Source: a virus (lineage: Duplodnaviria; Heunggongvirae; Uroviricota; Caudoviricetes). From it: a DNA stretch of 47,784 bases. Below the pieces are notes generated by a model. It saw nothing but the letters and a program-made list of their open reading frames with translations. It did not search any database and had not been told where the DNA came from. Position numbers and translations under genes: made by a program. Location of the stretch: the IMG/VR virus record IMGVR_UViG_2706794696_000014. One strand, given 5' to 3'. Below, piece by piece: positions 1,553 through 47,784 of the stretch; position 1 is the stretch's first letter; the number at the start of each line of letters is the position of its first letter.

Positions 1553-1813
1553 TCACGAGGACTGAAGTTTCTCGCAATTAAAATTTATCAGTTTTACTTT
1601 CTGCTCTCTGGAAACGCCTGCTTCTTTTTTACCTGAGAGCATTTTTTCGCATTCTGATTTCGTTAGTTTAGATTTTGAATATCTTGTCCAGTTAGTAGGA
1701 GTGCCACCTTCCTTTTCAATAGTGGCGGTAATTTTATACATGAACACCTCCATTATTATTTCCAGTGGTTCGTTTATTTCATCGTTCGAGTGCTTCTTTT
1801 TCACTTCCACCAT
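1553..1813 (-). CDS. ydaC: Small Rac prophage protein YdaC-like (function unknown)
   Basis: 86-aa ORF between xis and recT, overlapping the 3' end of the ralR-like ORF; position matches ydaC. Confidence 0.6.
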   Translation of the reverse strand: MVEVKKKHSNDEINEPLEIIMEVFMYKITATIEKEGGTPTNWTRYSKSKLTKSECEKMLSGKKEAGVSREQKVKLINFNCEKLQSS

Positions 1814-1940
1814 AACCGGTTCGGGATTCGCATCCGTTACACTTCGCTCGGTAATATCCTGAAATGGCTTTCACCGTTACTGATGGACAACCACAAAATG
1901 GACATGGTTTAACATTGTCATATCTCATAATTTTTCTCAT
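1779..1940 (-). CDS. ralR: RalR/Lar-like restriction-alleviation / DNase toxin ORF, apparently truncated by an in-frame TGA (53 aa from first Met, 49 aa from second)
   Basis: Translation MRKIMRYDNVKPCPFCGCPSVTVKAISGYYRAKCNGCESRTGYGGSEKEALER then TGA at 1779-1781; the same frame stays open for 14 more codons (NKRTTGNNNGGVHV) to a TAA at 1734-1736, i.e. a 64-aa form if TGA were TGG. Confidence 0.55.
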   Translation of the reverse strand: MRKIMRYDNVKPCPFCGCPSVTVKAISGYYRAKCNGCESRTGYGGSEKEALER

Positions 1941-1983
1941 AAAAATATTTCAAGTTGGCGGTGCATTACACCGCCAGGCTGAA

Positions 1984-2793
1984 TTATTCCTCTGAATTAT
2001 CGATTACACTGTATTCCCCGGTTAATACAGAGGAATCTGCAGGATCGATTGTCAGTGGTTCCTTTTCATCCATTGATACTGCACGCTGGATCTCAATTGA
2101 TACGGGCAGATATTTGAACAGGCGACGAATAGCCGTTTTCTTTGCCATTTCTTCCCAGTGAGTTACCCACGGCCCGTTATTACCAGCTTTACTCTGGCTG
2201 CGCACCAGCTCAATCTGTTTGCGCGTCATAACTTCAAACTGAGTACCTCCGTCTTTCAGTCTTGCGACAGCATAGACGTGGGTAACAGGGGCATCTTCGT
2301 TTTCTCCTGGGCGGTGTATTAACTTTTCATCAAGGCCAAATTCGAAATTAAACTCGTCACCTTCACGGACAACACGGGCTGACAGGCTGGCGATTTGACC
2401 TGAACGGCGAGCCAGATCAATCATGCCGCGATAGCCAATGATTAGCTGAACGTTTTTTTTACCGCTCTTTTCGTTTTTATTACCAAAAGGCAGTAAATAT
2501 GCATGACCGAGGGCGCTACCGGGCTCAAGTCCGAGCTGTGAACACTGTACGATTGCACTGACAAAACTCATAGTGTCACAGTTTCCTAACGCCGGAACTT
2601 TACGAATTTCTGTGGTGGCGATACGGATCATACGTTCAGCCGTCATATGGCGTGGAAGAGCTGCTGCCAGTTGCTCTTTCATTGATGGCTGGTTAATAAA
2701 ACTAATCACGTCGTTATTTTTAATTGCTGCTGGTGCACGGTTTCCCTGAGTTTTTTGCAGATCGGCTTTTGCGATTGGTGGTTGCTTAGTCAT
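1984..2793 (-). CDS. recT: RecT single-strand annealing protein, 269 aa
   Basis: ORF starting [16 protein letters not shown] with an AAGGA Shine-Dalgarno; RecT/Redbeta-family signature; start overlaps the recE stop by 8 nt. Confidence 0.9.
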
Positions 2794-5386
2794 TTGCATA
2801 TTCCTTAGCCCAGCGGGGCAGTGATAACGTCTTAATAGCTGGCCATTCATCGGTATTGAGGCAGTCAGCCAGGGTTCGCAGATTGCGGTGATATTCCAGC
2901 TGACCTGCCAGTTTTGCTTCTTCGCCCATCATGAAAATTTCAACCGGATAACGTCCGCATTCAATAGTTGTGCTGGCAACCAGAAAAACGAAAGTTGGCT
3001 GCACTCCAAACTGTGCTTCATAACCGTCACTGTAGAATGCATCCTGAACGTGATAGCGGTAGTCGTAATAAGCGGTTTTGAATCGTTGAATATCCGCCGT
3101 AGTTTTCACGTCCATGATCCAGTGAAATTCAGGGATAATTTTGTCCGGACGGCACCGACACAAAATTGCTGTTTCAGGATCTTCCCAGTAAATTGATGAT
3201 TCAGCGTGTCCGGCGCTTTCAACAAGCCATTGCCCCAGCGGCAAAGCCATAACGCTCTGATACATGAGTTCAATTTTCCGGCCTTCTTCGGCAGTGATAA
3301 CCGTTTTTCCTGTGCTTGCGCATTCCCTCAGAAACGCTTTCTCTTCTTCTTTTCCGGAGTTTGTCCGGCGGTTAAATTCAGGTGCTACGATAAAGCGGTT
3401 ACTGAATTCTTCCGGCTCAAGTACCCGGCAGTGGAAAGCGGTTCCTAAATCGAGCGTTTTTGTCTTTGTGGTGTCCACGGGGGCATTTTTACGCCACAAA
3501 TACAGTGCCGGAGTATCAGCAATGTCATCGAGCTGAGACTTACTGACACCGGGACCCGCGTGGTAATTCTCATTCGAAATTCCGTAATAAATACCTGGCT
3601 CTATGTCTTCTACGATTACGGGATCTGCGACTTCGCCAGTTTCATCACTGCAATCGCGATGCGGATCGCTGCCAGCATTCTCATTGTGCGGATGTTCAGC
3701 GCCTTCCATTTCCTCCGGATCATTTTCCTTAGCTTCAACCTGACTCTCTTCATCGAATGTTTCCTGGTATGTTGCGTCGCCCATCACCGCACCACAGTCA
3801 GGGCAGTTATCCCCGCCAGTCTGGCCGCAGGCATTGCAGGCTATTTCCGGTTCCTGTTGCACTACTGGCTCAGGTTGATTCATATCCGGGCTGGTTTTTT
3901 CCGTTTCTGGCTGGTTCTGGTACACACAATCGCGAGTCTGGATCCCCTTTACCCATTTCGGATCGTTCGGGTCGCTAATTCCGTCAACAAATTCACCACG
4001 TGATGCAGCAAGCAATTTATCGGCATCGACAGGATTTTTTGATGGAATGTTTTTCCGGGCTTCATGGAGTTCTGCCCGCAGTTCCTGATATTTCGCATCA
4101 ACAGAATTTACCTGTGACTGAGCATCCAGCGGCTGCGTGTCCTGATGATGTTCAGTTGCGTCCGGTTCCATTGTTTCAGCCTCTCCCTGTTCAACTGCCG
4201 TTGTTCCAGATGGTTGCGGTTTTTCTTCATCATCCTGTTTTCCTTCTTCTGTTACTCGCTGCGGCATCGGGGCAGAGGAGCGACCGCAGGCAATATCCAC
4301 GATTTCCGGATCAGGGTTGGCATGATCGGTTTCAGTCAGTACTTTGTTCAGATATTCAGTGACGTGCGCGGGGATGACCTCGATCCCAATTGGTGCTTCT
4401 TTTACGGACGCAACCACGATGGCGCGGGAATAATCCAGCCCGCCAGGCATGGTGATGAATTTGTCGCGGAAAACAGAAAAGGGCGGTTTATTTTCAGCGA
4501 TAATTTCCTCAATGCGTTTAGCGTGTGCCGGATGAAGGTTATAGATGTCCAGATCCATTGAACGGGCCAGTACGCCAGTGGCTACGTCCCGCGCCAGTGA
4601 CGTCAGATCGTGTACGAAACCTTCGCCGCGATCGGTGAGGTTTCCGCCGCCAGCATTAGCACCGGAAGCCGTGCGAGTGATGTGTGAAACACGATTACCC
4701 TTCATCCACTCTTTTGTCAGCAGTCCTCGATCGGTGTAGTCAGCGTTCAGGTATGCTTCGAAAAAAGCAGTTATCAGTCCCAGGTTTGAATTACCAGGAT
4801 TAGGGAAAACTTTGTCAGTGTCACGAACCAGTTTGTGGAGTTCGCGAATTTCCAGCGGGTCGAGCAGGCTGGTTTTGTGGGAAACAGCCAGGGCAGTAAC
4901 AGCCGGTAGTTCTTCAGCCCGAGCAATGTGTAATGCCTGGAGTCCGTCGCGTGAAACGTGCGTTACCGGTTTTTCGCTGCCGTGTTGAGCAAGCCAACGA
5001 ATGGGCAGTTCCTGGCCAGAAATTGGGAGTAGCATATTCTCCTCAATCTCAGGCATGTCTTCGCCGTTGACGTTGGTATTGCCTTGATAGTGAGCGTTGT
5101 CTGGTGCTGCTCCCGGTTTTAGTTCCCATGTCATGGAGTCTTTGCTGAGTTGATAGCGTTCACTCCAGGTAAAATCGATCTCACCTTCAGCGGGCAGGTC
5201 ATTAACGACAGGAAAATTCGTGGCAACAGCTTTAAAATAGCTGCTCAGTTTTTTACCTGACTTAACGATCAGGTAGTCCAGAGTGGCACAGGTCGATTCA
5301 AAATCGTTGCTTGCCCACAGGACGACGTCAGGTTCACCGGATGATTTTTTCGCTTTCCGTAACAGGAAGAGTGGTTTTGTGCTCAT
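2786..5386 (-). CDS. recE: Exodeoxyribonuclease VIII (RecE), 866 aa
   Basis: 866-aa ORF directly upstream of recT on the same strand; acidic low-complexity middle and C-terminal nuclease region as in RecE. Confidence 0.9.
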
Positions 5387-17592: not shown

Positions 17593-18181
17593 GCTGGTTT
17601 ATTGTATGCCAAATGATTATTAAAAAGGTTGTGTTAATAACAAGATCCGAAATAATATGCCTGCATATTTTTATCTTGCTTATATTCTGCATATTGTGCA
17701 TAGCAGGCTCATCCCTGCAATCAAAACTGTATGATGAGTATTTTTTGTTTTCCTTTTTTCCAGTCATCTGATGATGACCTGCTTCTTTTTAATCCGGATC
17801 GACATCAGTTTTTTAAGATAATTCCTGCGAGTTATATGCATAAATGCCACAAACTCCGCATTTTATGTGGTTGGGAGTTGCCGGGCGCGCAGTGAGTTTG
17901 CTAAGAAAACTCCTGCATGGTGAATCCCCCTGTGCGGTGGGGTGATACCATTAACCTTTTCTGTCGCCGACAGGTATCACGAACATTTTGTTCACCGGGA
18001 GGCACCCGGCACCATGCACTTCAATAGATTCTCTCCACATTATGGATATTCTTTCAGAATATCCCACGCAGACTTTGTGTAAATGTTAACAAATGTGCGT
18101 TTTATTTGATCTGATTCGCTGTTTGAGCGTCCAAAACAACGGTATATATAATCCTTTACTATATGACATATGTGAGGAAAA

Positions 18182-39961: not shown

Positions 39962-40506
39962 AAACGGGGGCCGAAGCCATCCGGGCACTGGCCACACAGC
40001 TCCCGGCATTTCGTCAGAAACTGAGCGACGGCTGGTATCAGGTGCGCATTGCCGGGCGTGATGCAGGCGAAAATGAATTATCTGCCCGTCTTAATGAACC
40101 GCTGGCAAATGGTGCCGTGATCCACATCGTTCCGCGTCTGGCGGGTGCCAAAAGTGGCGGTGTGTTTCAGGCGGTGCTGGGTGCGGCGCTGATTGCGGTG
40201 GCATGGTGGAACCCTGTGGGCTGGCTGGGGGCCGCGGCTGTATCGGGTATGTATGCAGCAGGGGCCAGTATGATCCTGGGTGGTGTGGCGCAGATGCTGG
40301 CACCGAAAGCCAGGACGCCCACGGCAGCCAGTACAGATAACGGCAAACAGAACACGTATTTCTCGTCACTGGATAACATGGTTGCCCAGGGTAATGTTCT
40401 GCCTGTTCTGTACGGGGAAATGCGCGTGGGGTCACGTGTGGTTTCTCAGGAGATCAGCACGGCAGACGAAGGGGATGGTGGTCAGGTTGTGGTGATTGGT
40501 CGCTGA
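39859..40506 (+). CDS. Tail tip assembly protein I-like, 215 aa
   Basis: ORF MAATHTLPLASPGMARICLYGDLQRFGRRIDLRVKTGAEAIRAL ... GEMRVGSRVVSQEISTADEGDGGQVVVIGR, in the lambda I position. Confidence 0.85.
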   Translation: MAATHTLPLASPGMARICLYGDLQRFGRRIDLRVKTGAEAIRALATQLPAFRQKLSDGWYQVRIAGRDAGENELSARLNEPLANGAVIHIVPRLAGAKSGGVFQAVLGAALIAVAWWNPVGWLGAAAVSGMYAAGASMILGGVAQMLAPKARTPTAASTDNGKQNTYFSSLDNMVAQGNVLPVLYGEMRVGSRVVSQEISTADEGDGGQVVVIGR

Positions 40507-43500
40507 TGCAAAATGTTTTATGNNNNNNNNNNNNNNNNNNNNNNNNNNNNNNNNNNNNNNNNNNNNNNNNNNNNNNNNNNNNNNNNNNNNNNNNNNNNNN
40601 NNNNNNNNNNNNNNNNNNNNNNNNNNNNNNNNNNNNNNNNNNNNNNNNNNNNNNNNNNNNNNNNNNNNNNNNNNNNNNNNNNNNNNNNNNNNNNNNNNNN
40701 NNNNNNNNNNNNNNNNNNNNNNNNNNNNNNNNNNNNNNNNNNNNNNNNNNNNNNNNNNNNNNNNNNNNNNNNNNNNNNNNNNNNNNNNNNNNNNNNNNNN
40801 NNNNNNNNNNTGAGCAGGAGCAGTCACCGCCGGAGGGGTTTGAATCCTCCGGCTCCGAGACGGTGCTGGGTACGGAAGTGAAATATGACACGCCGATCAC
40901 CCGGACCATCACGTCGGCAAACATCGACCGTCTGCGCTTTACCTTCGGTGTACAGGCACTGGTGGAAACCACCTCAAAGGGAGACAGGAATCCGTCGGAA
41001 GTCCGCCTGCTGGTTCAGATACAGCGTAACGGTGGCTGGGTGACGGAAAAAGACATCACCATTAAGGGCAAAACCACCTCGCAGTATCTGGTCTCGGTGG
41101 TGGTGGATAACCTGCCTCCGCGCCCGTTCAGTATCCGGATGCGCAGGATGACACCGGACAGCACCACAGACCAGCTGCAGAACAAAACGCTCTGGTCGTC
41201 ATACACCGAAATCATCGATGTGAAACAGTGCTACCCGAACACTGCACTGGTCGGCGTACAGGTGGACTCGGAGCAGTTCGGCAGCCAGCAGGTGAGTCGT
41301 AATTATCATCTTCGCGGGCGCATTCTGCAGGTGCCGTCGAACTATAACCCGCAGACGCGACAATACAGCGGTATCTGGGACGGAACGTTAAAACCAGCAT
41401 ACAGCAACAACATGGCCTGGTGTCTGTGGGATATGCTGACCCACCCGCGCTACGGCATGGGGAAACGTCTTGGTGCGGCGGATGTGGACAAATGGGCGCT
41501 GTATGTCATCGGCCAGTACTGCGACCAGTCAGTGCCGGACGGCTTTGGCGGCACGGAGCCGCGCATCACCTGTAATGCGTACCTGACCACACAGCGCAAG
41601 GCGTGGGATGTGCTCAGTGATTTCTGCTCGGCGATGCGCTGTATGCCGGTATGGAACGGGCAGACGCTGACGTTCGTGCAGGACCGACCGTCGGATAAGG
41701 TGTGGACCTATAACCGCAGTAATGTGGTGATGCCGGATGATGGCGCGCCGTTCCGCTACAGCTTCAGCGCCCTGAAAGACCGCCATAATGCCGTTGAGGT
41801 GAACTGGATTGACCCGGATAACGGCTGGGAGACGGCGACAGAGCTTGTGGAGGATACGCAGGCCATTGCCCGTTACGGTCGTAACGTCACGAAGATGGAT
41901 GCTTTTGGCTGTACCAGCCGGGGGCAGGCACACCGCGCCGGGCTGTGGCTGATTAAAACAGAACTGCTGGAAACGCAGACCGTGGACTTCAGCGTGGGCG
42001 CAGAAGGGCTTCGCCATGTGCCGGGCGATGTCATTGAAATCTGTGATGATGACTATGCGGGTATCAGCATCGGCGGGCGCGTGCTGGCGGTAAACAGCCA
42101 GACCCGGACGCTGACGCTCGACCGTGAAATCACGCTGCCATCNNNNNNNNNNNNNNNNNNNNNNNNNNNNNNNNNNNNNNNNNNNNNNNNNNNNNNNNNN
42201 NNNNNNNNNNNNNNNNNNNNNNNNNNNNNNNNNNNNNNNNNNNNNNNNNNNNNNNNNNNNNNNNNNNNNNNNNNNNNNNNNNNNNNNNNNNNNNNNNNNN
42301 NNNNNNNNNNNNNNNNNNNNNNNNNNNNNNNNNNNNNNNNNNNNNNNNNNNNNNNNNNNNNNNNNNNNNNNNNNNNNNNNNNNNNNNNNNNNNNNNNNNN
42401 NNNNNNNNNNNNNNNNNNNNNNNNNNNNNNNNNNNNNNNNNNNNNNNNNNNNNNNNNNNNNNNGCCATCGTGGATAACGGGGCGCACTTTGACGGCGACC
42501 AGAGCGGCACGGTGAATGGTGTCACGCCGCCAGCGGTGCAGCACCTGACTGCCGAAGTCACCGCAGACAGCGGGGAATATCAGGTGCTGGCGCGCTGGGA
42601 CACGCCGAAGGTGGTGAAGGGGGTGAGCTTTATGCTTCGCCTGACCGTGGCAGCGGATGACGGCAGTGAGCGGCTGGTCAGCACGGCCCGGACGACGGAA
42701 ACCACATACCGCTTCACGCAACTGGCGCTGGGACGGTACACGCTGACAGTCCGGGCGGTAAATGCCTGGGGACAGCAGGGCGATCCGGCGTCGGTATCGT
42801 TCAGGATTGCCGCACCGGTAGCACCGTCGCGGATTGAGCTGACGCCGGGCTATTTTCAGATAACTGCCACGCCGCATCTTGCGGTTTATGATCCGACGGT
42901 ACAGTTTGAGTTCTGGTTCTCGGAAACGCGGATTACCGATATCAGGCAGGTTGAAACCACAGCCCGCTACCTTGGCGCGGGGCTGTACTGGATAGCCGCC
43001 AGTATCAATATCAAACCGGGCCATGATTATTACTTTTATATCCGCAGTGTGAACACCGTTGGCAAATCGGCATTCGTGGAGGCCGTCGGTCGGGCGAGCG
43101 ATGATGCGGAAGGTTACCTGGATTTTTTCAAAGGCAAGATAACCGAATCCCATCTCGGTAAAGAGCTGCTGGAAAAAGTTGATCTGACGGAGGATAACGC
43201 CAGCAGACTGGATGAGTTTTCGAAAGAGTGGAAGGACGCTAACGATAAATGGAATGCGATGTGGGGCGTCAAAATTGAGCAGACCAAAGACGGCAAACAT
43301 TATGTCGCGGGTATTGGCCTCAGCATGGAGGACACGGAGGAAGGCAAGCTGAGCCAGTTTCTGGTTGCCGCCAATCGTATCGCGTTTATTGACCCGGCAA
43401 ACGGGAATGAAACGCCGATGTTTGTGGCGCAGGGCAACCAGATATTCATGAACGACGTGTTCCTGAAGCGCCTGACAGCCCCCGCCATTACCAGCGGTGG

Positions 43501-44089
43501 CAGTCCTCCGGTATTTTCCCTGACATCAGACGGAAAGCTGACCGCTAAAAATGCGGATATCAGTGGTAGTGTGAATGCGAACTCAGGAACGCTCAACAAT
43601 GTCACGATTAACCAGAACTGTACGATTAAGGGCATGCTGGAGGCGACCCAGGTCAGAGGGGATTTCGTTAAAGCTGTATCAAAAGCCTTCCCGAAAAAAG
43701 TCGGTACGTGGGGTAACACGGAAACACCAGACGGTACGGTTACAGTCACCATCAGCGATGATCATAACTTTGACCGCCAGATTATTATTCCGCCCATTAT
43801 TTTTAACGGTATAGCGTATGACGATCCGGGGAGCGGAAATAACCCAGGAGGCACGCGATACACGGGTTATGGTTTTGAAGTTCGCAAAAACGGCGTATTA
43901 ATCGCATCCAGAGAAACTAAAGGGGCCATTCCCGGTAGTTACAGTGCAGTTATTGATATGCCTAGTGGTGGTGGTAGCGTCACTCTGGAGTTTAAGATTT
44001 TCCAGAAAGGCAATCAGGGGGCAGGCAATATCACCGACTGTACGGTGATTGTGACCAAAAAAGCGGCTTCCGGCATCAGTATTCGTTGA
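40506..44089 (+). CDS. Central tail fiber / host specificity protein J-like, interrupted by two assembly gaps; true start lies inside the first gap
   Basis: Resolved segments ([31 protein letters not shown] ..., [28 protein letters not shown] ...) read as one lambda J-like protein; the frame differs across the second N-run, so gap lengths are estimates. Confidence 0.8.
40523..40810. other. Assembly gap (288 N) inside the 5' end of J
   Basis: Run of n in the sequence. Confidence 0.99.
42143..42463. other. Assembly gap (321 N) inside J
   Basis: Run of n; the J reading frame is not preserved across it, so the length is a placeholder. Confidence 0.99.
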
Positions 44090-44109
44090 AATATTTATAA
44101 CCCCAATAA

Positions 44110-44137
44110 ATGGCGTCAGGAATGACGCCTTTTTTAT
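44110..44137 (+). terminator. Rho-independent terminator after J
   Basis: GGCGTCA-ggaa-TGACGCC followed by TTTTTTATT. Confidence 0.7.
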
Positions 44138-44159
44138 TGCAGAAAAGCGAGAGGTAATT

Positions 44160-44759
44160 ATGCGTAAAGTTTGTGCCGCCATTTTGTCCGCAGCCATTTG
44201 TCTGGCCGTATCCGGTGCGCCTGCATGGGCGTCTGAACATCAGTCCACGCTGAGCGCGGGGTATCTTCATGCCCGGACCAACGTTCCCGGCAGTGATGAT
44301 CTGAACGGGATTAACGTGAAATACCGTTATGAGTTTACGGATACGCTGGGGCTGGTGACGTCATTCAGCTATGCAGGAGACAAGAATCGCCAGCTGACCC
44401 GTTACAGCGATACCCGCTGGCATGAAGATTCCGTTCGTAACCGCTGGTTCAGCGTAATGGCGGGGCCGTCTGTGCGCGTGAATGAATGGTTCAGCGCGTA
44501 TGCGATGGCGGGTGTGGCTTACAGCCGTGTGTCGACTTTCTCCGGGGATTATCTCCGCGTAACTGACAACAAGGGGAAAACGCACGACGTGCTGACCGGA
44601 AGTGATGACGGTCGCCACAGCAACACGTCTCTGGCGTGGGGAGCTGGCGTGCAGTTTAACCCGACCGAATCCGTGGCCATTGATATTGCTTATGAAGGCT
44701 CCGGCAGTGGCGACTGGCGCACTGACGGTTTCATCGTGGGTGTCGGTTATAAGTTCTGA
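44160..44759 (+). CDS. lomR: Lom-like outer membrane protein (Ail/Lom family beta-barrel), 199 aa
   Basis: Signal peptide (MRKVCAAILSAAICLAVSGAPAWA), alternating beta-strand pattern and C-terminal GYKF; located between J and stf as lambda lom is. Confidence 0.85.
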   Translation: MRKVCAAILSAAICLAVSGAPAWASEHQSTLSAGYLHARTNVPGSDDLNGINVKYRYEFTDTLGLVTSFSYAGDKNRQLTRYSDTRWHEDSVRNRWFSVMAGPSVRVNEWFSAYAMAGVAYSRVSTFSGDYLRVTDNKGKTHDVLTGSDDGRHSNTSLAWGAGVQFNPTESVAIDIAYEGSGSGDWRTDGFIVGVGYKF

Positions 44760-44784
44760 TTAGCCAGGTAACACAGTGTTATGA

Positions 44785-44814
44785 CAGCCCGCCGGTTCAG
44801 GCGGGCTTTTTTGT
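44785..44814 (+). terminator. Rho-independent terminator after lom
   Basis: AGCCCGCC-ggttca-GGCGGGCT followed by TTTTTTG. Confidence 0.7.
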
Positions 44815-44823
44815 GGGGTGAAT

Positions 44824-47784
44824 ATGGCAGTAAAGATTTCAGGTGTACTGAAAGACGGCACAGGAAAACCGGTACAGAACTGCACAATCCAGCTGAAAGC
44901 AAAACGTAACAGCACCACGGTGGTGGTGAACACGCTGGCCTCAGAAAATCCGGATGAAGCCGGGCGTTACAGCATGGACGTTGAGTACGGTCAGTACAGC
45001 GTTATTCTGTTGGTGGAAGGATTCCCGCCGTCACATGCCGGGACCATCACTGTGTATGAAGATTCCCGACCCGGTACGCTGAATGATTTTCTCGGTGCCA
45101 TGACGGAGGATGATGCCCGTCCGGAGGCTCTGCGCCGTTTTGAACTGATGGTGGAAGAGGTGGCGCGTAACGCGTCCGCGGTGGCACAGAACACGGCAGC
45201 CGCGAAGAAGTCAGCCAGTGATGCCGGCACATCTGCCCGTGAGGCGGCAACCCATGCGACTGATGCTGCAGGCTCAGCGCGTGCAGCCAGCACGTCAGCC
45301 GGACAGGCCGCGACTTCGGCTCAGGAGGCGTCTTCCAGCGCAGGAACGGCATCAACAAAGGCCACTGAAGCATCAAAAAGTGCTGCCGCTGCAGAGTCCT
45401 CAAAAAGCGCGGCGGCCACCAGTGCCGGTGCGGCGAAAACGTCAGAAACGAATGCTGCAGCGTCACAAAAATCAGCAGCCACTTCTGCATCCACTGCGAC
45501 AACGAAAGCGTCAGAAGCCGCCACTTCAGCCAGAGATGCGGCGGCCTCCAAAGAGGCGGCAAAATCATCAGAAACGAACGCCTCCACAAGCGCCAGCAGT
45601 GCAGCCTCCTCGGCAACGGCGGCAGGAAATTCCGTGAAGGCGGCAAAAACGTCCGAGACGAATGCTAAGTCTTCTGAAACGGCAGCGGAACAGAGCGCCT
45701 CAGCTGCGGCAGACTCTGAGACAGCAGCTGCATCATCGGCCCGTGAGGCGTCCATTAAGGCAGAGGAGGCAGCAGTCAGTGCCACCGCCGCCGGAAAATC
45801 GGCAGAAAGCGCCGCATCATCCGCTTCAACAGCCACAACGAAGGCTGGCGAAGCCACTGAACAGGCCAGCGCAGCAGCGAGGTCTGCTTCCGCAGCGAAG
45901 ACATCCGAAACGAACGCGAAAGCGTCGGAAACCAGCGCAGAATCCTCAAAAACGGCTGCCGCATCGTCCGCCAGTTCGGCGGCGTCATCGGCATCATCTG
46001 CGTCTGCTTCAAAAGATGAGGCGACCAGACAGGCGTCAGCAGCGAGGGGCAGCGCCACGACGGCATCCACGAAGGCGACAGAGGCTGCTGGCAGTGCGGC
46101 AGCGGCAGCACAGAGCAAAAGTACGGCGGAATCCGCGGCAACGCGCGCCGAGACAGCAGCAAAACGGGCAGAGGATATTGCATCCGCCGTGGCGCTTGAG
46201 GATGCGAGCACGACGAAAAAGGGGATAGTACAGCTCAGCAGTGCGACCAACAGCACTTCCGAGTCACAGGCGGCAACGCCAAAAGCCGTTAAGGCCGCGT
46301 ATGACCTGGCTAACGGGAAATACACCGCACAGGATGCAACGACAGCACAGAAAGGGATAGTTCAGCTCAGCAGTGCGACTAACAGCACTTCCGAGTCACA
46401 GGCGGCAACGCCAAAAGCCGTTAAGGCCGCGTATGACCTGGCTAACGGGAAATACACCGCACAGGACGCTACGACAGCACAAAAAGGAATTGTCCAGCTC
46501 AGTAGTGCAACCAACAGCACATCTGAAACGCTTGCTGCGACACCGAAAGCAGTGAAAGCAGCTAATGACAATGCGAATGGTCGGGTACCTTCTGCCCGTA
46601 AGGTGAATGGTAAGGCGCTTTCAGCGGATATAACACTGACGCCGAAAGATATTGGTACGCTTAACTCAACAACAATGTCATTCAGCGGTGGTGCTGGTTG
46701 GTTCAAATTAGCAACGGTAACCATGCCACAGGCGAGTTCTGTTGTTTCAATTACGTTGATTGGTGGCGCTGGATTTAACGTGGGGTCACCTCAACAGGCA
46801 GGTATATCTGAACTTGTTTTACGTGCAGGTAATGGTAATCCGAAGGGGATTACTGGTGCTTTATGGCAGCGCACATTGACAGGGTTTACAAATTTTGCCT
46901 GGGTTAATACATCTGGTGATACTTACGATATTTACGTTGCAATCGGAAATTATGCGACTGGTGTAAATATTCAATGGGATTATACCAGTAATGCCAGCGT
47001 GACGATTCATACGTCACCAGCATATTCTGCTAATAAGCCGGAAGGGTTAACGGACGGTACAGTTTATTCACTCTATACGCCATCAGAGCAGTTTTATCCG
47101 CCTGGCGCACCAATCCCGTGGCCATCAGATACCGTTCCGTCTGGCTATGCCCTGATGCAGGGGCAGGCTTTTGACAAATCTGCATACCCGAAACTTGCAG
47201 CGGCTTATCCGTCAGGCGTGATCCCTGATATGCGTGGCTGGACGATTAAGGGCAAACCTGCCAGTGGTCGGGCCGTATTGTCTCAGGAACAGGACGGCAT
47301 TAAATCGCATACCCACAGCGCCAGCGCATCCAGTACGGATTTGGGGACGAAAACCACATCGTCGTTTGATTACGGCACTAAATCCACGAATAACACTGGT
47401 GCGCATACCCATAGTTTAAGTGGCAGCACGAATGCAGCTGGTAATCACAGCCATAGAGATGGCCGTCGATTTAACCCCAGTGTTTTTAAAGATACTTATC
47501 AATATGGTTATACAAGCTCAGGTCAAAATACCTGGGGTGTACAAGGCTCAGTAGGTATGTCTACGGGGTGGTTAGCGAATACCAGTATAGATGGTAATCA
47601 TAGCCATTCACTGTCCGGCACAGCAGCATCTGCAGGTGCACACGCGCATACTGTCGGTATTGGTGCTCATACGCACTCCGTTGCGATTGGTTCACATGGA
47701 CATACCATCACCGTTAACGCTGCGGGTAACGCGGAAAACACCGTCAAAAACATCGCATTTAACTATATTGTGAGGCTTGCATAA
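44824..47784 (+). CDS. stfR: Side tail fiber protein (Stf-like), about 986 aa
   Basis: N-terminus [26 protein letters not shown]; long Ala/Ser/Thr-rich region; three tandem 44-aa repeats; His-rich C-terminus with repeated HxH motifs. Confidence 0.9.
45130..46200 (+). repeat. Low-complexity Ala/Ser/Thr-rich imperfect repeat region within stf
   Basis: Recurrent degenerate units (KTSETNA..S.., AAS.SA..) at the DNA level (GC-rich GCN/TCN codons); these generate spurious long antisense ORFs. Confidence 0.6.
46222..46617 (+). repeat. Three tandem 132-bp (44-aa) repeats inside stf
   Basis: Units begin at 46222, 46354 and 46486 ([44 protein letters not shown]); copies 1 and 2 are nearly identical in DNA, copy 3 diverges in its second half. 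Confidence 0.85.

Follow-up and report, generated by a model that had tools for sequence, protein, structure and literature searches.

In Escherichia coli K-12, the Rac prophage gene ralR encodes a protein of 64 aa, yet the corresponding frame in the prophage analysed here ends after 49 codons. This raises the question of whether ralR was cut short by a single nonsense mutation and, if so, whether loss of its product was selected. [quoted passage not shown] The stretch of DNA analysed (the window, 47,784 nucleotides) is essentially one complete prophage, 99.96% identical to E. coli NCTC10444 over positions 1-40522 (40.5 kb), a region of NCTC10444 in which trkG and genes for replication, lysis, terminase, capsid, tail, and tail fibres are annotated. 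On the minus strand, the initial 5.4 kb of the window form the left end of a lambdoid prophage of Rac type, and the gene order recE, recT, ralR, DUF1187/rcbA, xisR, intR confirms the Rac-type position of ralR. The gene ttcA lies just beyond the window and adjoins intR in all matched genomes. The features of this end are as follows:

5386-2786, minus strand: recE
2793-1984, minus strand: recT
1940-1938, minus strand: upstream in-frame ATG of ralR, which would give 53 codons
1928-1926, minus strand: second ATG of ralR, the start used by RefSeq
1779-1928, minus strand: truncated ralR ORF, 49 codons and TGA from the second ATG, the RefSeq start (WP_001443846.1)
1782-1784, minus strand: Arg49 codon with the synonymous change linked to the stop, CGA in the window and AGA in K-12
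1779-1781, minus strand: premature stop TGA at codon 50, which is TGG (Trp50) in K-12 and in all other full-length alleles examined
1734-1778, minus strand: orphaned 3' end of ralR, 14 sense codons (NKRTTGNNNGGVHV) and the original TAA (1736-1734), identical to K-12
1553-1741, minus strand: DUF1187/rcbA (ydaC) homologue of 62 aa, matching the Pfam PF06688 profile over positions 1-61 of 61, its start overlapping the original ralR end
1236-1, minus strand: intR

Read from 1940, the minus-strand frame translates as MRKIMRYDNVKPCPFCGCPSVTVKAISGYYRAKCNGCESRTGYGGSEKEALER, a stop, NKRTTGNNNGGVHV, and a second stop. If W is placed at the first stop, the product from the second Met becomes a 64-aa protein that equals K-12 RalR in length and sequence. 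The first-pass annotation had described a TGA at 1779-1781 after 53 codons, followed by 14 sense codons up to a TAA at 1734-1736, and translation bore these coordinates out. It had also attributed the short frame to a single TGG-to-TGA change, which agrees with the K-12 alignment (TGG at this codon) and with the 64-aa product of the repaired frame; the mutated base, which it had put at 1780, is instead the third base of the codon, at 1779, which reads A on the minus and T on the plus strand. A tail of 14 open codons after a stop has a chance probability of ~0.5, (61/64)^14, and is not improbable alone, so the case for a truncation rests on homology and not on ORF statistics. The orphaned 3' end also contains the Shine-Dalgarno sequence and the start codon of the downstream gene.

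The homology is close. The proposed identity of the gene as ralR is upheld by its setting between recT and rcbA and by profile matches of the 49-aa product, which scores 126.9 bits against NCBIfam NF007260 (cutoff 113), 40.3 against TIGR03655 (cutoff 39.6), and 39 against Pfam PF14354, Lar_restr_allev (cutoff 28.6). Compared with K-12 Rac, the window has the same order recE-recT-ralR-rcbA-xisR-intR, the same RalA, and the same pairing sites, and is 99.2% identical over 501 bp, with four differences, one of which is TGG/TGA at codon 50. Residues 1-49 are identical to those of K-12 RalR (Lar, RALR_ECOLI, 64 aa), whereas the last 15 residues, which include the W-N-x-R motif, are missing from the window protein. 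The T-run upstream of the ralR ATG is 1 nt shorter in the window, and the window prophage is complete, whereas K-12 Rac is a 23-kb remnant. Homologues from E. ruysiae, Shigella, Salmonella, Citrobacter, Kluyvera, and Serratia read through codon 50 with Trp, and Trp is also found in distant Lar members from Bombella, Desulfobacterales, Clostridia, and Chitinophagales. Across these sequences, the comparison indicates that TGG is the ancestral codon; reference proteins do not end at the position of the window's stop, since W50 is invariant across the Lar family.

The allele with the stop (hereafter W50stop) is not confined to the window. Among 5,426 complete E. coli genomes, 308 have the exact 81-nt stretch with the TGA, including strains of O157:H7, O55:H7, and O111:H8; the K-12 version of the same stretch occurs exactly in 1,110. 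About 1,760-1,880 of the 5,426 genomes carry ralR in total, and W50stop accounts for ~1/6 of these carriers, the O157:H7/O55:H7 lineage included. The exact 49-aa product corresponds to the RefSeq MULTISPECIES entry WP_001443846.1 and is present on at least 1,000 contigs; ralR is annotated with 195 nt (64 aa) in K-12 and with 150 nt (49 aa) in the window-identical copy of O55:H7. Because the exact allele recurs in so many complete genomes and its protein on so many contigs, the TGA is, judged by this distribution, a genuine inherited allele and no sequencing error, a concern that the first-pass annotation had raised. W50stop is an already catalogued, widespread, ordinary polymorphism, and the literature searched, including PMC4041452, PMC4632033, and PMC7232551, holds no description of the truncated allele.

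The W50stop carriers share more than the stop codon. E. coli O55:H7 CB9615, O111:H8 SF4-1, the urinary isolate EC7, the calf strain NCTC10444, and the deposited record vB_EcoS-666R9 match the window without a difference from at least 1158 to 2385, and the identical block common to the sampled carriers measures at least 1.2 kb. O55:H7 CB9615 has the identical protein and shares at least 3.7 kb of identical DNA; taken as a whole, the window prophage is closest to non-O157 strains, e.g., NCTC10444, whereas the locus itself is the same as in O55:H7. The TGG alleles compared all depart from the window at 1779 and, in addition, at 1784 or elsewhere close by. The W50stop locus occupies the same ttcA-adjacent site in each carrier genome examined, and the ttcA proteins vary between hosts. 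Because carriers from differing backgrounds share an identical block, the allele is, on this comparison, identical by descent, with a single origin and later movement with the prophage or by recombination, so that the 308 genomes count as one event. Phage Rac-SA53 has CGA followed by TGG at codons 49-50, which represents the precursor state; the precursor 81-mer (CGA TGG with the flanks of the window) is absent from the 5,426 complete genomes. W50stop is also present in three deposited prophage records. These "phage" records begin at int and contain trkG, and we rejected them as proof of carriage in virions, as they look like prophage regions cut from genomes.

The antitoxin side of the locus comprises three features:

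1557-1735, plus strand: complete RalA antitoxin sRNA (Rfam RF02694, covering model positions 1-179 of 179 with 225.1 bits, gathering score 170)
1791-1806, minus strand: 16-nt RalA-pairing site in the ralR mRNA, AAGTGAAAAAGAAGCA, at codons 41-46 (GSEKEA), identical to K-12
1619-1634, plus strand: 16-nt pairing segment of RalA, TGCTTCTTTTTTACCT, at RalA nt 63-78, identical to K-12

The pairing site in ralR was defined in PMC4041452, where the 5' end of RalA was mapped 62 nt upstream of the repeat, in agreement with the position of the segment at 1619-1634. An inverted-repeat search missed the 16-nt repeat, as its two copies have the same orientation in the DNA, and it was located by eye. The pairing site in ralR precedes the new stop by 10 nt, and there is no difference from K-12 inside RalA. 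The regulatory half of RalR/RalA thus survives, with RalA and both 16-nt pairing sites unchanged: RalA lies beside ralR on the opposite strand and the 16-nt complementarity is present, and the intact toxin ORF is absent. As RalA is antisense to the intact DUF1187/rcbA gene, which would constrain it independently, its conservation is not independent evidence of function.

RalA may have a narrower distribution than the toxin. In Citrobacter braakii, only a weak RalA-like match (3210-3385, 35 bits against the gathering score of 170) comes after the Lar/RalR homologue, and the Kluyvera and Serratia loci yielded no match to RalA. RalA is perhaps confined to the Escherichia/Shigella Rac lineage, and the Lar protein is far more widespread. 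There are also rare RalR-DUF1187 fusion proteins, represented by two E. coli proteins on 1-2 contigs each. Their junctions are located at short direct repeats common to ralR and ydaC, one of them at the 16-nt RalA pairing repeat; the fusions look like deletions between repeats, which would also remove part of ralA.

The explanation that we favour, and consider probable, is that W50stop is a natural ralR nonsense allele of single origin that spread with the prophage, and that its product is most likely inactive or weakened while the RalA side is unchanged. The ralR haplotype hit by the mutation would have had the synonymous CGA at Arg49 beforehand, and the allele would then have spread with the Rac-type prophage into many E. 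coli backgrounds.

Had the loss of RalR toxicity been selected, either because a leaky DNase toxin is costly to lysogens or because the prophage is stabilised, the high frequency of W50stop would be explained; we regard this as possible but doubtful. RalR is toxic when overproduced (PMC4041452), which is in line with such selection. The recE, recT, xis, int, head, tail, and lysis genes of the prophage are intact, and no lesion other than that in ralR is evident at this end; since the prophage is otherwise complete, the lesion is not part of general prophage decay. RalR fusions and other short forms are on record, and a second nonsense allele arose independently. This allele (G24stop) occupies the same prophage position in strain 2013C-3264 and 14 other complete genomes (15 in total) and belongs to a diverged haplotype, with GGA changed to TGA at codon 24, the start ATG lost to TTG, and several extra amino acid changes. 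Its pN/pS of 0.17-0.29 is as expected for a decaying pseudogene.

Full-length ralR alleles have far fewer nonsynonymous than synonymous changes. K-12 and UTAK-1 differ by 11 synonymous and 1 nonsynonymous changes (pN/pS 0.03), UTAK-1 and Rac-SA53 by 15 and 3 (pN/pS 0.06), and the full range is 0.03-0.09. These ratios indicate that full-length ralR is under strong purifying selection, so the gene normally matters and the nonsense mutation is a real lesion. The same conservation argues against an advantage of the truncation, as the intact protein would usually be favoured. Moreover, a single origin reduces the 308 genomes to one event, heavily sequenced clones (O157:H7) inflate the frequency, and two nonsense alleles among roughly 1,880 carriers are not clearly above what mutation and drift produce. 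In addition, ralR belongs to the early leftward operon of Rac; this operon is kept repressed in lysogens, which would leave hardly any toxin for selection to act upon. The suggestion that the truncation reflects selection against the toxin fits the data, but neutral loss of a lysogen-silent gene, combined with hitch-hiking on a successful prophage lineage, fits them equally well, and the sequence evidence does not favour selection over neutral loss.

The expectation that the product is inactive or weakened depends on what the stop removes. The four-cysteine zinc ribbon (C9-x2-C12 ... C30-x2-C33), whose cysteines are invariant or nearly so in an alignment of 69 Lar family members, is complete in the 49-aa product. 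The W-N-x-R motif, which is the most conserved Lar feature after the first zinc knuckle and contains the most conserved non-cysteine residues, is encoded downstream of the TGA in the window and is left untranslated. In the same alignment of diverse single-domain proteins, W50 is found in 69/69, N51 in 68/69, and R53 in 68/69 sequences. All 69 members run at least 6 residues beyond the Trp, although the alignment was limited to members of 55-75 aa and cannot reveal naturally short ones. The Pfam PF14354 score drops from 53.5 bits for the full-length protein to 39 bits for the truncated one, a loss of 14.5 bits, and the truncated match already breaks off at profile position 52 of 58.

A full-length RalR homologue (92% identical to K-12 RalR) was modelled with AlphaFold2 from the 69-sequence alignment, giving a mean pLDDT of 76.5 and of ~86 for residues 11-50. 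The model predicts a beta-hairpin (strands 17-22 and 25-30) carrying the zinc-binding cysteines, a helix at residues 43-51, and a disordered tail from residue 56. According to this model, the 49-aa peptide would keep the four zinc-binding cysteines and the beta-hairpin, and would lack the last turn of the sole predicted helix together with Trp50-Asn51-x-Arg53 and the disordered tail. A change of E43-K44-E45-A46 to A-I-A-E, in the same helix, abolishes toxicity (Guo et al., PMC4041452). A sequence search of the PDB gave no match, and Foldseek gave 0 matches to the model at E <= 0.001; the fold search returned only generic zinc ribbons (Elf1/ELOF1, eIF2-beta, Pol III C11), none of them significant. 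The predicted Lar fold, a small zinc ribbon with one helix, appears unlike known nucleases and would be hard to square with the reported non-specific DNase activity of RalR.

Given these losses, the 49-aa RalR is most likely devoid of activity, or much impaired, in its roles as toxin and in the alleviation of type I restriction. That it still functions, fully or in attenuated form, with the C-terminal 15 residues dispensable, is in our view distinctly unlikely. It would be consistent with the four cysteines and most of the Pfam domain being kept, and with the last 9 residues being predicted to be disordered; with the zinc ribbon intact, residual activity of the 49-aa protein is possible. The product also scores above the RalR equivalog cutoff, and the Prokaryotic Genome Annotation Pipeline (PGAP) does not call a pseudogene. 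The short protein has accumulated no extra amino acid changes. This lack of further decay counts against inactivation, as it fits constraint on the short protein, but it fits a recent origin as well; W50stop differs from K-12 by only one synonymous change, which gives no power to separate the two. Against a functional short form stand the loss of W50, N51, and R53, the extension of all 69 aligned members (chosen at 55-75 aa) beyond the Trp, and the loss of toxicity upon mutation of residues 43-46.

Loss of the full-length protein may not be total. In E. coli, termination at a UGA with A as the next base is comparatively leaky, and the near-cognate reader of UGA is tRNA-Trp, so read-through would remake the exact wild-type RalR at a low level. 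W50stop could accordingly be imagined as a tuned allele, in which read-through supplies 64-aa RalR at a roughly hundred-fold lower dose, but we consider this very improbable. If true, it would allow some restriction alleviation on prophage induction with the toxicity risk removed, and it would explain the untouched 14-codon tail, RalA, the pairing sites, and the absence of further decay. We give practically no credence to the idea that the stop is an artefact of assembly or sequencing, or that RalR normally ends here, as nothing was found in favour of either, the identical allele is present in 308 complete genomes and its protein on at least 1,000 contigs, and K-12 and the enterobacterial homologues named above read through with Trp.

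A type I locus that persists with a disabled toxin gene, as the favoured single-origin nonsense allele would have it, has a likeness in the hok/sok-type loci of the K-12 chromosome. Their toxins are membrane peptides of an unrelated family, whereas RalR is a zinc-ribbon protein, and their inactivation came about through insertion elements or rearrangements and did not involve a point nonsense mutation. The Hok-like toxins of the K-12 chromosome seem for the most part to be inactive (PMC4041452).

The neighbouring rcbA gene also differs in length from its K-12 homologue (62 aa versus 69 aa), owing to one A/T difference at 1555 that makes TGA in the window of the K-12 AGA (1553-1555). We considered a second premature stop here and rejected it, as all diverged alleles examined end in TCG TGA, an end common to UTAK-1, 2013C-3264, and Rac-SA53, and the 62 aa fill the whole Pfam profile. 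The 62-aa form is the common and probably the ancestral state, and the K-12 form is probably a derived stop-loss extension. Base 1555 is located 2 nt before the 5' end of RalA and might in principle affect the RalA promoter. Creation of an rcbA promoter by the G-to-A change in ralR was likewise rejected: the candidate ATGAAA-16-AATAAT at 1782-1755 (minus strand, 9/12 matches) is insignificant, with four promoter-like sites found against 1.9 +/- 1.4 in shuffles, and the start that it implies falls within the rcbA Shine-Dalgarno sequence.

Upstream of ralR, the spacer to recT contains a further feature:

1937-1995, minus strand: stable hairpin in the recT-ralR spacer (-25.4 kcal/mol, z = -5.4, 0/200 shuffles as stable)

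The hairpin has the core GGCGGUG/CACCGCC; the upstream ATG (1940) and the T-run are paired in the lower stem, and the ATG at 1928 stays free. The core stem is kept in Rac-SA53 and the loop differs. This structure might act in transcription termination or in the control of ralR translation.

Elsewhere in the prophage, the tail-tip (J) and tail-fibre region at about 40500-47784 is at most 96% identical to the closest genome, compared with 99.96% in the rest, which suggests an exchanged host-range module. The prophage also has a match to the Rfam sRNA STnc100 (17885-18071, plus strand, 86.6 bits against a gathering score of 47), and a weaker STnc100 copy is found in the Citrobacter braakii ralR locus (positions 22-220 of that locus).

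The main value of W50stop lies in annotation and in the interpretation of toxin-antitoxin surveys. Pipelines name its product an intact "endodeoxyribonuclease toxin RalR" despite the missing invariant C-terminal motif, because the 49 aa still score 126.9 against the cutoff of 113. PGAP flags G24stop as a pseudogene with an "internal stop" and keeps W50stop as an intact gene, which is inconsistent. Inferences drawn from K-12 RalR on fosfomycin tolerance, toxicity, and restriction alleviation are thus not transferable to W50stop strains without a test. At the same time, W50stop is a natural truncation mutant for probing the role of W-N-x-R in a family without a solved structure or a recognisable nuclease fold.
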